This document shows positions 3,001-9,000 of a stretch of DNA of 16,924 nucleotides, piece after piece. Within the stretch, counting starts at the first letter, position 1. Every line of letters begins with the position of its first letter. Made by a program: the position numbers. This DNA is from a virus (taxonomy: Duplodnaviria; Heunggongvirae; Uroviricota; Caudoviricetes): IMG/VR virus record IMGVR_UViG_2850790056_000003, one strand, 5' to 3'.

Positions 3001-6000
3001 CCCAGACCTGATTTGGTGCTGTAGGAGCGAACGTCTGGTTCAGCAGATTTGGCGCAACTGGCAGATTATGGTTCGAGTTCGTAGTCGCTCTGAACTTGCG
3101 TTTCTGCTTACAGCGTAGCCTTAGCTCCTTACGAAGACGTGCCAGTCGGTCACGACCAACGATGATGCCATTCTCTGCCAGCTCCGTCTGGAGCCGCCGG
3201 GTTCCATATGTTTCGCGAGTGCGGATATGTGCCACCTTAATCTCCAGTTTTAGCCGCTCATCACTTTGTTTTCTGTCTGAGGGTTCATGCTGTACCCAGT
3301 TGTAATAACCGCTCCTGGATACACCAAATACCTGACACATCGCTTCAATGGGAAATTGTTGTCGCCATTGTTCGATTAACGCGTATTTTTCAGCGACTCC
3401 TGTGCAAAATACGCTGTTGCTTTTTTTAATATATCTCGCTCAAGGCGAGCTTCATTTAACGCCTTACGCAGTTGCAGAATTTCAGATTCCAGTTCAGCCA
3501 CCGTGCGGGAACCAGGAGTACCGAGCCCTTTTCTGGCGGCGGTAACCCATTGTCCTAAAGGGCCTTCAGGAAGGGATAATCGGGAAGCGCCTTCACTGAT
3601 CGAAAGTTGATTTTCAAGAACCGTTCTGACAGCTTCGGCTTTGAACTCTTTAGAGTAACGTTGGGTTTTTCTGCTCATTATTAGCTCCTTCTGATGCCAT
3701 TCTATTTCAGGAAGGAGTGTCCGTTAAACTCAGGCTACCTCAGTCGTCGGACAGTTGCCTGGCTCCTCTGGTGATGAGATGTTCCCCTCACTCACAACTG
3801 GCTGGATGAACTCCGCACCATAACCAGCTGTCGAAATCAGCGCACTACCATAAGGCTGCCACCCTTCCTTCAGTTTTTGAGTTATTCGTTTCGCAAGGTC
3901 TGACGGCGACGCCACCCTGACAACATCATAGTGTTTAAATGCCATGAATCCTCCCGGCCGGGATAATATTGTGAGTAAAATAAGGAGCGGGCTGAAGTCC
4001 GGAAGTTACAGGACAATGGCAGAAGGGAGACTACAGCCCGCAATTCGAAAAAGGTCGCGCAGTTGCGCAGAGTGATTACTATGGGGTATTATTCGCCAGC
4101 TGAAATATTACTTCACGTTTCATTGTTTATTCCTTGCCGCCCGCGTCTCCCAGCGCGGGCTTTTTTGTCCATAAGAAAGCCCCTCCGGAGAGGGGCTGGA
4201 GAGTGGCGCGATGTGCCATTGTATGGTGCCGGGTGCCTCCCGGTGAGTTCAGCCCGGTGCCACTAAACCCGCGTCATTCTCGTTTTGATAATCAGAGATT
4301 ATACCGTCACCAGTCGCCCCTCCGCTCAGGGGGATTCACCATGCAGTTTTTTCTAACAAATTCTCATCCGGGCAGACAACATTCAACTGACTTAATTGTG
4401 AGGTATGTAACATTCCTGTTGAACGGATACAAAAAAAGCCAGCCACCAGGGGAGGCTGGCAAACTCGTAGAGCAAAATGCTGTTACGCAAACTTCGTTAC
4501 AGGGTTATCCTGCAATACTTAAAATATACAATATTTAGAAAACTAATAGTGCCATATGAGATTTTTAAGATTTTGTTATTAATTGCGGTCGCACCTTCCT
4601 TTCTGTGTACTTTCCGTATAGCTCACAGGATTCTGGGTACAAAAAAACCCGCGCATCGGCGGGTTCGGCTGCGTGGCAATGTAACCACTCTTATCATGAT
4701 ATGCAGATTTTTACGTACGTAAAATACTTTTTTGGCATCCCACTTTATTCAGGTATGGAATCAAACAAGAGGACCGGGGTTCTACGGCGCTTTACACCCC
4801 CTCGGGCGAGGATTTTCGAGCTCTTTTTTTACCACATAGCAATGTATTCAGTCGGCGTTGTTTGGGGCTTCTGCATGGACGACACCAGCTTTGCGGCCTT
4901 TTCTTATTCCCACAAATTCTGAATCCGAATTTTTTCTCAATTTCCTCATCAGAGACAGCTATTTTGCCGCAGAGGGGGCAAGTGTGCTTTTTATCATACT
5001 CGGTTTTCAGCACCTCAATTAACTTACGAATTAATGGCTTGATGTCATAAACGTTCCGCAAATCATAATCATGACCGATTTGAGCATAACTTATCTTCTG
5101 CAACATCCCTTTCTCCTCCAGGCGTTGAAAGCCTTCTTCTATAATGGCACGAGATGCACGCATTCTGGTGGCAAAAAGAGATATTGACGGTAATGTTTGT
5201 GAATCTACATCCTGATGAAATGTAGACTGGCCCCCTGAATCTCCAGACAACCAGTATCACTTAAATAAGTGATAGTCTTAATACTAGTTTTTAGACTAGT
5301 CATTGGAGAACAGATGATTGATGTCTGAGGTAGACTGAGTTGGTGATGCTTCCAATTAGTAGAACATGTGTTTTTCAATAAACGTCCCGATGACTTTTTC
5401 GTGGATCTCTACTGAACGCGAGAAGCAGATTGTTTTACGAGCCAAGCGCTTAATGCGGGTGCGCAGCGTCAGGTTATTGCGCTCAATCCGTTGGGTGAAT
5501 ATTTTTCCGGTCAGATGCTTATCCTTCGGCACCTCCCGGCCATAGCTGCCCCAGTCGTCGCTGGTGAGCATGCCGATGTTGAATGGCGTAAGCAGTGCCA
5601 GTAGTTCCCGGCAGGTTTCATCGGTACGGGGACCAAAAGTGTAGGCCAGTACCCCCCCTGTTTTGGTGTTATACGCGTACCAGAGCCAGTGTTGCCGGGC
5701 TTTACTGCCAACGAAACTCCATTGCTCATCAAGTTCGCAGATAAGCGCCACATCAGCATGAGCAACGGGCGAAGACGTTATTCGCTTTGGCGTGAGTTTT
5801 TTAAAGTCCGGATGACGGTGTTAATGCCAATTTTCAGTGTCCTGGCGGTATCGCGAACCCCGGCGCCATTGAAGGCCATTTCAGTGATCAGCTCTTTAAT
5901 GCCCGGCTTACGGGCCTCATAAGTGTAAGTGAGCTGAAAAACGCGGTGGCAGTCACGGCAGCGAAATCTGTCATGGCCTTTAGGGTTCTGACCATGGCGG

Positions 6001-9000
6001 TAGACCTGTGCAGACTGACAACGAGGACAATGAATGTTAACGCTGGCCATGAAAGAACCTCAAAAGCCCGCATTATACATCAGATTCAACTAATTAGAGG
6101 CATCACCCCTGAGTTTAACGGACACTCCTTCCTGAAATAGAATGGCATCAGAAGGAGCTAATAATGAGCAGAAAAACCCAACGTTACTCTAAAGAGTTCA
6201 AAGCCGAAGCTGTCAGAACGGTTCTTGAAAATCAACTTTCGATCAGTGAAGGCGCTTCCCGATTATCCCTTCCTGAAGGCACTTTAGGACAATGGGTTAC
6301 CGCCGCCAGAAAAGGGCTCGGTACTCCTGGTTCCCGCACGGTGGCTGAACTGGAATCTGAAATTCTGCAACTGCGTAAGGCGTTAAATGAAGCTCGCCTT
6401 GAGCGAGATATATTAAAAAAAACAACAGCGTATTTTGCACAGGAGTCGCTGAAAAATACGCGTGAATCGAACAATGGCGACAACAATTTCCCATTGAAGC
6501 GATGTGTCAGGTATTTGGTGTATCCAGGAGCGGTTATTACAACTGGGTACAGCATGAACCCTCAGACAGAAAACAAAGTGATGAGCGGCTAAAACTGGAG
6601 ATTAAGGTGGCACATATCCGCACTCGCGAAACATATGGAGCCCGGCGGCTCCAGACGGAGCTGGCAGAGAATGGCATCATCGTTGGTCGTGACCGACTGG
6701 CACGTCTTCGTAAGGAGCTAAGGCTACGCTGTAAGCAGAAACGCAAGTTCAGAGCGACTACGAACTCGAACCACAATCTGCCAGTTGCGCCAAATCTGCT
6801 GAACCAGACGTTCGCTCCTACAGCACCAAATCAGGTCTGGGTGGCGGACCTGACGTATGTTGCCACACAGGAGGGATGGTTGTACCTCGCTGGCATCAAA
6901 GATGTTTATACGTGCGAAATTGTCGGCTACGCCATGGGAGAGCGCATGACAAAAGAGCTGACAGGTAAAGCCCTGTTTATGGCGCTCAGGAGCCAGCGCC
7001 CACCTGCCGGGCTAATCCACCACTCTGATCGAGGTTCACAGTACTGCGCATACGATTACCGGGTCATACAGGAGCAGCTTGGTCTGAAAACATCAATGTC
7101 GCGTAAAGGTAACTGTTACGACAACGCTCCGATGGAAAGCTTCTGGGGAACGCTGAAAAATGAGAGCCTGAGCCACTATCGTTTTAATAACCGGGATGAA
7201 GCCATCTCAGTAATACGGGAATACATTGAGATTTTCTACAATCGTCAGCGTCGTCACTCTCGTCTGGGGAATATCTCCCCGGCAGCCTTCAGGGAAAAAT
7301 ATCATCATATGGCTGCTTAAAAAAAGAACAAATGGTAGTGTCCGCTATTGCCAGTACACCTCAGATATCGCCAACCAGATCCGAACTCCCCATGATGGAT
7401 GCGAGCTGCTCCTCGTTGTAATCCCGCCCAAATACGGTATTACTGGTTTTTACGCAAGCCAGATCAGGCATTGAGGGGGCAAAAAACTCGTAATCACTCA
7501 GATCACCACGCTGGATAAGCTCACGAATCGTTGTAGGCTTGATCAGGCATTCGTAGTACTTGCCCATCCAGGCCGCGAACGGGGTACCGGAAAGCCCAAG
7601 AACCCTGATGTCTTTGTCCCGGATAACCTCAAGTAACGCACGGCGCTTCATGTGTGCTTCATCGATGATCAGCAGATCGATATTGTCAGGGAACGCACGG
7701 CGCTTCATGTGTGCTTCATCGATGATCAGCAGATCGATATTGTCAGGGAACTCACGACGGATCAGCGTGTCAGCGCTGGCAATCTGAATCAGTCGTGACG
7801 GGTCATAGTTAGGGTGATCACGCCATACAAAACTGATTTCTTCCCACGGCAAACCGTATTCGGTGAAACGCTCTGCTGTCTGGTTCAGCAGGATTGTGTA
7901 CGGGCAAACGAACATCACCCGCATACCACGTTCAACCATTCCGGCTGTGACGAATGCTGCAAGACCAGTTTTTCCAGAGCCAGTGAGTGCGTACATCAGG
8001 TACGTGCGATGCTGTTTCCACTCGTGCCGCAGCTGGTTTAAACCGCGCTCCTGTGCAAAGTTTGGGGTGATTTTCAGCATGACGCCCCCTTGCTACGTGG
8101 TTTACCCGTTGCCGGGATCACGTCGATCTCATCACTAACGTATTGTTCAGGATTTCGTGAGCAGCGCAGAAGCACGATACCAGGAATGCCGTATAGCTTG
8201 AGTCTGCGCAGTTTCAGTATTGAACGTGCCCGTGGTGATGCTCTGTCCACCTCGATCGCGCACCGTTCACCAGATGGGGCAACGGCCACGATATCGACGA
8301 ATCCGCGCTTACCGTTGCCCATATCAACCAGATAATTACGTTCGATCGCCAGTCCGGCATCACGCAATTTGGCAGCCAGCACATAATCAAACGTGACCTT
8401 GTCTTTTCCGGTGTAGAATTGGTTTCCGAGCAGGCTGACAACCACATTTTTGATGAACGCGGTACTATTTCTACTGTGATAGTTGGCGTGATAATAATTT
8501 CACAAGAAACCATCCCGCCATATACAGTGATCTACCTAACCTATGGAGCTGTCTTTCTGGTAGTGCCCTTACGGGCACGGATGTTACAGATCTGCCCCCT
8601 TACCCCCTTCTTAGTAAAATTTCAGACAAAATAATTTCACATACAATTATTTCTCAAGAAACAATACCTTACTGAGGTTTTACTCCTTCCGTATCGCTAC
8701 TGGCGAAATCATCCAGCCACGGCTGGCTCTCGCGTACTTCTGGACATACACCCGTAACCGGGTGTTGGCGCTCCGTCTTGCCCTGTTGCCCTTCCTGAAC
8801 GATACAGGCTCCTTGTACCACTCTTCCTGGTACACTCTCGCGTACTCTGCTGCAATTTTTACCCGGGTGGTCGGGTCCAGTTGTAACAATTGCTCCTGTA
8901 TCCAGTCCCGATCAGCATCGCTGTACTGATCGGGCATAACCGTTTTGATTTGCCTGTTCACTCACACCTCCGGTGCGCTGTGTGTCCAGGATTAATCATC

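Follow-up and report, generated by a model that had tools for sequence, protein, structure and literature searches.

The window, a stretch of 16,924 nucleotides catalogued as a virus of the Caudoviricetes (IMG/VR record IMGVR_UViG_2850790056_000003), has its source in the Shigella dysenteriae chromosome CP026782.1. At 5223-7363, three insertion sequences (IS) lie together, and sequence alignment finds the whole set base for base: the left end of an IS2, a copy of IS600 and, within the left inverted repeat of this IS600, an IS1-family element of the IS1N type. A truncated phage gene stands on either side. The elements match other copies at 97-99.7% identity across lengths of 103, 766 and 1264 bp, so that chance can be set aside, and their identities, boundaries, duplications and frames are directly established here. 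All coordinates and junctions given in an earlier note on this DNA hold.

The IS2 stub and the split IS600

Nucleotides (nt) 1-103 of IS2 occupy 5223-5325 on the plus strand, with 97-99% identity from the left inverted repeat onward to IS2 copies at five loci on Shigella plasmids. The stub comprises this repeat and extends 3-4 codons into IS2 orfA (ATGATTGATGTC). A full IS2 has 1331 bp and a 5-bp target duplication; here only nt 1-103 are present, and the right end and the remaining 1228 bp are missing at the junction. As described in the earlier note, IS600 follows directly, from 5326. The exact boundary may lie one base further on, since the T at 5326 fits both IS2 nt 104 and IS600 nt 1.

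This copy of IS600, hereafter IS600-B, is divided in two on the plus strand. Based on the sequence and on alignment to other IS600 copies, the outer stub of its left inverted repeat (nt 1-16) lies at 5326-5341 and nt 9-1264 lie at 6108-7363. If 5342-6107 and one of the 8-bp copies are taken out, exactly 1264 bp remain, with the imperfect TG...CA terminal repeats of IS600. The restored element aligns without indels to three reference copies, among them an E. coli copy and the second IS600 of the window (2479-3742, minus strand). It is about 99.2% identical to the latter (10 differences in 1264 bp), compared with a membership threshold of at least 99% identity to annotated IS600. Like other members of IS600, an IS3-family element of Shigella and E. 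coli, IS600-B has an orfA (6164-6592), an orfB (6502-7320) and an A-rich slippery site (A AAA AAA, 6415-6421), all on the plus strand and located by frame analysis. OrfB scores 335 bits to the IS3 family transposase model NF033516.

Unlike an intact IS600, however, IS600-B has its left repeat split by IS1N, lacks the 3-bp duplication, and has lost the stop codon of orfA. A T-to-G change at 6464 turns this stop from TAA into GAA, extending OrfA to 142 aa, and at the same time places a TGA (6463-6465) in the orfB frame. The modelled OrfAB fusion, produced by a -1 frameshift, ends at 100 aa, compared to 385 aa in both the other IS600 of the window and the E. coli copy. This nonsense mutation is an addition to the account given in the earlier note, as are the identities of the deleted material and of the host. 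With its truncated OrfAB, IS600-B still belongs to the family, as a defective copy. The split also puts 766 bp between the terminal cleavage block (nt 1-16) and the inner conserved repeat block (nt 17-27), and from what is known of IS3-family biology this left end is very probably dead, in agreement with the earlier note. Taking the split repeat and the stop in the transposase frame together, we infer that IS600-B is a dead relic twice over.

The trinucleotides next to IS600-B are gtc on the left and gat on the right, confirming that the left flank does not recur after the right end. The missing duplication is meaningful because all the IS600 copies fetched from other records (3/3) have perfect 3-bp duplications (GGT, CCA, CCA). 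It points to a later rearrangement of IS600-B rather than to non-membership. Both copies of IS600 in the window are without a target duplication.

An IS1N element inside the left repeat

The element at 5342-6107 (minus strand) is 766 bp long, in line with the ~766-768 bp of the IS1 family, and is bounded by 23-nt terminal inverted repeats (5342-5364 and 6085-6107, 87% complementary) that start with GGTGATG (GGTGATGC). Frame analysis on the minus strand places insA at 5778-6050 (InsA, 90 aa), the A6C frameshift motif (TTAAAAAAC) at about 5796-5804 and the insB' frame, in -1 relative to insA, with its end at 5356. The predicted InsAB' fusion is open for 231 aa and scores 261.7 bits to the IS1 family transposase model NF033558 (cut-off 100). 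The element is 99.7% identical (2 mismatches in 766) to a copy on plasmid pSD1_197 that PGAP labels 'IS1-like element IS1N family transposase'. By this match it is the IS1N isoform, the name resting on the NCBI PGAP label of the pSD1_197 copy and not on an ISfinder reference. The earlier note had called the element clearly distinct from the canonical IS1 at 15635, and indeed the two share only about 55% identity (canonical copy at 15635-16402); identity to a third type of IS1, found in comparison loci L005 and L006, is about 75%. Compared with known IS1N, a divergent IS1 isoform of S. dysenteriae with the same length, terminal repeats, A6C -1 frameshift between insA and insB' and 8-bp duplication, nothing of substance differs apart from one substitution in the left duplication copy. 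With terminal repeats, insA, A6C site and InsAB' frame all intact, the element looks transposition-competent.

The sequences flanking it, actgagtt on the left (5334-5341) and cctgagtt on the right (6108-6115), agree at seven of eight positions over a length typical of the 8-9-bp target duplications of the family. The mismatch is a C-to-A change in the left copy at IS600 nt 9 (5334 in the window), where every other IS600 compared has C. Perfect 8-bp duplications surround the three other unrearranged IS1N copies (3/3), which are located on S. dysenteriae plasmids, and a canonical IS1 in locus L005 makes a 9-bp duplication. A 9-bp duplication was also considered for the present element and rejected: the terminal C of IS1N would have to be counted as target DNA, giving a match of 7/9.

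According to the earlier note, the 766-bp element sits 16 bp inside the IS600 left repeat with an approximate 8-bp duplication and looks like a true transposition. Both the position and the process hold: IS600 nt 1-16 end at 5341 and the element starts at 5342, excision restores a gap-free IS600 of 1264 bp, and other IS1N copies make duplications of 8 bp. The imperfect match of the two flanking copies (7/8) counts against the insertion account. It would also suit an assembly artefact, or an IS600 left end that is naturally bipartite, and exact-protein look-ups of two junction-specific products in indexed collections, the truncated helicase described below and the extended OrfA, returned the source assembly only. 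The earlier note had itself raised the possibilities that 5342-6107 is not an independent IS and that the left end is bipartite by nature. Both are contradicted by what we find, namely an element that is complete, has inverted repeats and intact frames of its own and is 99.5-99.7% identical to copies elsewhere with perfect 8-bp duplications, and an IS600 left end that is contiguous in four other copies, in addition to the exact length obtained after excision. We consider such an explanation extremely improbable and effectively already refuted.

Truncated phage genes and the route of a probable deletion

To the left of the IS2 stub, at 4792-5222 on the minus strand, a phage gene of family phrog_34160 is represented by its C-terminal 143 codons. 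Residues 10-152 of the translation of 4792-5250 match positions 55-197 of the 197-position profile (E 6e-80). At the nucleotide level, this flank is 86.6% identical to Shigella phage 75/02 Stx, in which the relative is a 197-aa gene between Q and stxA; the alignment stops at 5222, and IS2 cuts off the N-terminus of the gene exactly at 5222/5223. Downstream of IS600-B, the N-terminal 239 codons of a DEAD/DEAH-box helicase are found at 7361-8080 on the minus strand (phrog_16 DNA helicase; Pfam ResIII/DEAD). This gene is truncated at 7364, exactly where the alignment to prophage L003 begins, and its stop codon TGA is provided by the last three bases of IS600 (TCA). In intact Stx2 prophages the helicase has 507 aa.

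The truncation of both flanks and their colinearity with Stx phages are observed directly. Order and strand are those of intact Stx phages (nanS-p, the stx site, the 197-aa gene, the helicase, cro, cI), and this speaks for an internal deletion. The view of the earlier note that IS600 did not simply insert into IS2, and that a deletion or recombination has occurred, is thus upheld by the truncated, colinear phage flanks as well as by the missing 3-bp duplication. IS600-B would mark the site of this deletion, which spans several kilobases and apparently took Q and the nin genes along with half of the helicase and what remained of IS2. With confidence, we read the region as three levels of catalogued insertion sequences, nested at the scar of a deletion within a defective lambdoid prophage that resembles Stx phages. 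This confidence covers the description of nest and deletion taken as a whole.

Alternatively, nothing was deleted, and recombination between distant IS600 copies, by inversion or translocation, joined two separate fragments of prophage, with the missing genes now elsewhere in the chromosome. IS-associated inversions are reported in genomes of S. dysenteriae type 1 (SD1) (PMC7819885), and the two IS600 copies of the window, both without target duplications, show that several rearrangements have occurred. Nonetheless, a random translocation is not expected to preserve the order and orientation found in intact Stx phages. Inversion of the segment between the two inverted IS600 copies of the window (2479-3742 and 5326-7363) was rejected, as swapping their inner flanks restores no 3-bp duplication. 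We regard this alternative as improbable.

Returning to the internal deletion, the following order of events is the most likely. IS2 would have entered the phage gene between Q and the stx site, and IS600 would then have entered IS2 after nt 103. Next, this copy would have undergone homologous recombination with another IS600, located in direct orientation in the helicase gene, and the DNA between the two would have been deleted: nt 104-1331 of IS2, the phage gene up to codon 54, Q, ninH and the other nin and replication genes, together with the C-terminal half of the helicase. A single hybrid IS600 with the unmatched flanks gtc and gat would remain. Finally, a copy of IS1N transposed into the left inverted repeat of IS600, where it separated nt 16 from nt 17 and gave rise to the 8-bp duplication of nt 9-16; the C-to-A change in the left copy arose afterwards. 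On balance we lean towards recombination between two IS600 copies as the route of the deletion. Because the partial searches described below found no ancestral state, we infer this step, as we do the relative order of IS2, IS600 and recombination.

A second route is possible, if less likely: IS600 may have made the deletion itself by intramolecular transposition, a single copy in the helicase gene (with duplication GAT) having attacked IS2 at nt 103 with its left end. A right flank that is kept (gat, helicase) next to a single new junction on the left is the signature of such adjacent deletions. Furthermore, IS600 ends are joined to IS2 at nt 99 on E. coli plasmids, at nt 188 on an S. dysenteriae plasmid and at nt 589 on an S. 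boydii plasmid, which makes IS2 a frequent target of IS600. However, transposition in the IS3 family follows a copy-out/paste-in path with a circular intermediate and does not typically produce adjacent deletions. The genome also holds many copies of IS600, two of them in the window, making RecA-dependent recombination easy. We rank the adjacent deletion below two-copy recombination, although the present sequence alone cannot separate the two.

Junction searches and related nests

Neither the junction of IS2 nt 103 with IS600 nor the predicted reciprocal (IS600 right end, GTC, then IS2 nt 104 onward) was matched in exact-pattern scans of part of the species-representative genomes. The IS600::IS1N junction had no match in a scan of part of the JGI metagenomes, and no identical junctions occur in the parts of the PLSDB plasmids and complete E. 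coli genomes queried. The only near-reciprocal junction in these last queries, on several E. coli plasmids, has the right end of IS600 before IS2 nt 99. Early plasmid matches to IS2 plus IS600, including pCP301, were set aside as not colinear (in pCP301, IS2 sits in the right repeat of IS600), and so were S. dysenteriae plasmid matches to IS1N plus IS600 (H26-H33), which are neighbouring or different elements and do not share the junction.

Two independent IS600/IS2 junctions fall within 5 bp of each other, the left end after nt 103 here and the right end before nt 99 on the E. coli plasmids. At the start of IS2 orfA, IS2 nt ~96-105 (TGATGTCTTAGG) bear a loose resemblance to an IS600 terminus (TGAGGTGT / TGAGGTAG). 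Insertion targeted to inverted repeats has reportedly been described for IS911. It is conceivable, but improbable, that this part of IS2 is a preferred, end-mimicking target for IS600; if so, insertions of IS600 in Shigella would systematically collect in copies of IS2.

Nesting of this kind is seen elsewhere. Among the few loci fetched from Shigella plasmids, S. dysenteriae 53-3937 carries IS2 nt 1-188 joined to IS600::IS1, S. flexneri 89-141 carries IS600::IS911, and S. boydii 59-248 carries IS2::IS600 with a duplication. In addition, an IS600 is truncated by IS2 on pCP301, and a 92-bp IS2 stub abuts IS1N on pSD1_197. The region likewise resembles the IS-mediated prophage decay and nested IS known from Shigella chromosomes and pINV, with IS within IS and duplication-less copies at deletion junctions, but the present set of junctions is absent from every other record searched. 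IS-mediated decay and nesting have been described in Shigella (PMC7373316), and the title of another paper refers to the same process (PMC5629016). A pile-up of an IS2 stub, a dead IS600 and an intact IS1N is ordinary for the IS-laden genome of S. dysenteriae.

In SD1 genomes, PHASTER 'Region 15' is a lambdoid remnant that carries cI, cro and a DNA methylase gene and is listed directly before the Stx1 prophage 'Region 16' (PMC7819885). The prophage in the window matches this 'Region 15' remnant. With the Q antiterminator, the nin genes and one half of the replication helicase gone, it is no longer inducible. The junctions of the nest, which recur nowhere in the collections searched, could be used to mark the strain or lineage. 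The region offers a clean worked example of prophage dismantling by insertion sequences in S. dysenteriae, of little import beyond annotation, and would give a relative order of IS activity for the lineage: IS2, then IS600, then IS1N.

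Layout of the nested elements and identity of the IS1N-type copy

Direct reading of the sequence, combined with BLAST against fetched reference copies, confirmed the arrangement described in the earlier note, namely an IS2 end followed by IS600 with an IS1-family element within the IS600 repeat. The IS2 part consists of nt 1-103 (5223-5325), covering the left inverted repeat and the first orfA codons (ATGATTGATGTC), and is 97-99% identical to five IS2 copies. IS600 follows directly (5326-7363), opening with TGAGGTAG and closing with ACACCTCA, and is split by a 766-bp element at 5342-6107. 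Removing this element together with one copy of its 8-bp flank leaves exactly 1264 bp, and the reconstituted IS600 shows zero indels relative to both the other IS600 of the window (2479-3742) and an E. coli copy.

The 766-bp element, on the minus strand, has terminal inverted repeats of 23 nt (87% complementary), encodes a 90-aa InsA and carries a TTAAAAAAC slippery motif and an open insB' frame. Joined by a modelled -1 frameshift, the fusion product (231 aa) scores 261.7 bits against the NCBIfam model NF033558 'IS1 family transposase' (cut-off 100). A copy on the S. dysenteriae plasmid pSD1_197, whose transposase carries the PGAP label 'IS1-like element IS1N family', has 2 mismatches to the element over 766 bp. 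Its identity to the canonical IS1 at 15635-16402 is only about 55%, and the two are as clearly distinct as the first reading had proposed. S. dysenteriae and S. flexneri plasmids also carry a third type of IS1 (plasmid loci L005, 1073-1555, and L006, 1399-1882), which shares about 75% identity with IS1N across 484 bp and may be the one that PGAP labels IS1SD.

The 8-bp flanks of the IS1N-type element, actgagtt on the left and cctgagtt on the right, are one base apart: IS600 nt 9 is changed from C to A in the left copy and is C in all other IS600 copies examined. All three unrearranged IS1N copies compared from S. dysenteriae plasmids are flanked by perfect 8-bp duplications (CGAATCCG, CTTTCATG and CGAAAAAC), and a canonical IS1 in L005 has a 9-bp duplication. 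Since other IS1N copies duplicate 8 bp, the near-duplication in the window is what a real IS1N transposition is expected to leave behind, as the earlier note had read it.

State of the nested IS600

Two blocks are common to the left and right repeats of IS600, a terminal one (nt 1-6 and 10-12) and an inner one (nt 17-27, TA.CGGACACT). The IS1N-type element separates nt 16 from nt 17; the outer stub of the left repeat retains the terminal block only, and the inner part begins at nt 9, without the TGAGGT terminus. In IS911 and IS2, both of the IS3 family, the transposase binds to the inner repeat sequence and cuts at the tip. With the two blocks separated, we infer that the split left end should be non-functional, in keeping with the earlier suggestion that the IS1-family element probably inactivates it.

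The coding region is altered as well. Through a T-to-G change at 6464, the stop codon of orfA has become GAA in place of TAA, and the nested OrfA has 142 aa instead of 100. In the orfB frame the same change turns TTA into TGA, and the modelled OrfAB fusion consequently ends at 100 aa, compared to 385 aa in both the other IS600 of the window and the E. coli copy. Judged from its sequence, the nested IS600 appears to be a relic.

Phage flanks and a putative internal deletion

IS600 copies from other records have perfect 3-bp duplications in three of three cases (GGT, CCA and CCA). The nested IS600 is flanked by gtc and gat, which do not match, and the copy at 2479-3742 likewise has no 3-bp duplication (ctg / gtc). 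To the left of the nest (4792-5222, minus strand) lie the C-terminal 143 aa of phrog_34160, which match positions 55-197 of the 197-position profile. Shigella phage 75/02 Stx carries this 197-aa gene between Q and stxA, and the nucleotide alignment to that phage ends exactly at 5222. To the right (7361-8080, minus strand), a phage DEAD/DEAH helicase that has 507 aa in O157 Stx2 prophages is represented by its N-terminal 239 aa; the alignment to the O157 Stx2 prophage begins exactly at 7364, and the stop codon of the truncated gene is supplied by the terminal TCA of IS600.

Both flanks keep Stx-phage order and orientation: nanS-p N-terminus, stx site, 197-aa gene, gap and helicase, followed by cro, cI, a methylase and a restriction enzyme. 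This colinearity argues that the nested IS600 marks an internal deletion in the prophage. The missing DNA would comprise the remainder of IS2 (nt 104-1331) and, on the phage side, 54 codons of the 197-aa gene, Q and ninH, additional nin and replication genes and the C-terminal half of the helicase. Comparison with the O157 Stx2 prophage suggests a loss of roughly 3 kb of phage DNA and 1.2 kb of IS2; this is an estimate, as the two flanking alleles occur together in no single reference phage. The unmatched gtc/gat and the truncated, colinear phage flanks bear out the earlier view that IS600 had not simply inserted into IS2 and that a deletion or recombination had occurred.

As for the route, we lean towards recombination between a pair of IS600 copies in direct orientation, the first inserted in IS2 (GTC duplication) and the second in the helicase gene (GAT duplication), by which the intervening DNA would be lost. 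The S. dysenteriae genome is saturated with IS copies (PMC7373316), and the window has two IS600 copies within 3 kb. Adjacent deletion by a single IS600 would produce an identical sequence; we consider it the less likely route. Inversion between the two IS600 copies of the window was rejected, as it restores no duplication. The IS1N insertion is a separate simple transposition and most simply the last event, because the element is intact and its duplication nearly perfect.

Prophage context and related nests

By an exact-protein look-up, the window lies in the S. dysenteriae chromosome CP026782.1, between psp/ycjM-like genes and suf genes. Its KilR, cI, cro and DNA methylase content matches a lambdoid remnant of SD1 genomes, PHASTER 'Region 15', listed directly before the Stx1 prophage 'Region 16' (PMC7819885). 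Directly downstream of the cI repressor gene, a type II restriction-modification pair (10044-12517; Eco57I-like methylase and BsuBI/PstI-family endonuclease) is kept in the same arrangement in Stx2 prophages of E. coli O157:H7, at 96-97% identity. Positions 3743-4414 match Stx-phage sequence that follows closely on stxB, together with the nanS-p N-terminus, and 4432-5222 match DNA upstream of stxA. The gap that separates the two matches is only about 17-30 bp (at about 4402-4431), and therefore the stxAB cassette with tRNA genes is precisely absent from a Stx-phage-like backbone.

Two other insertion sequences also lie at discontinuities. The IS600 at 2479-3742 (minus strand; OrfA intact, 100 aa) truncates the DUF1737/nanS-p gene (3730-3945), which it links to a Mom/Com/Gin-invertase-type remnant (289-1811); with no duplication, this IS600 therefore marks another rearrangement junction. 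No 9-bp duplication flanks the canonical IS1 (768 bp; ...cagcctga / tatttcgc...), which connects phage DNA to a fragment of an alpha-amylase-family (ycjM-like) gene and thus also lies at such a junction. An IS911-like IS3-family element (14244-15492), with CAA on either side, looks like a simple insertion into the prophage Rha/KilR region.

Exact scans of parts of species-representative genomes and metagenomes did not find the window junctions, and queries against parts of the PLSDB plasmids and of 5,426 complete E. coli genomes returned no identical junction. Related arrangements are common in Shigella plasmids: an IS2(1-188)/IS600 junction with a canonical IS1 within IS600 (S. dysenteriae 53-3937), IS911 splitting IS600 (S. 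flexneri 89-141), a simple IS600 insertion at IS2 nt 589 (S. boydii 59-248) and an IS2 inserted in the IS600 right repeat (pCP301). IS1N directly adjoins a 92-bp stub of the IS2 left end on pSD1_197 (at about 57.6 kb of NC_007607.1) and on nine further S. dysenteriae plasmids, and IS2 nt 99 adjoins the IS600 right end on five E. coli plasmids, including pZ1323PEC0013-4. Together with the nt-103 junction of the window, these hint that IS ends may locally favour the start of IS2 orfA.

Overall, the observation and the interpretation in the earlier note were both correct. IS2, IS600 and IS1N are all catalogued insertion sequences, and mechanistically there is nothing new in the nest. In Shigella, IS elements nested within one another and deletions bordered by IS copies are textbook behaviour.
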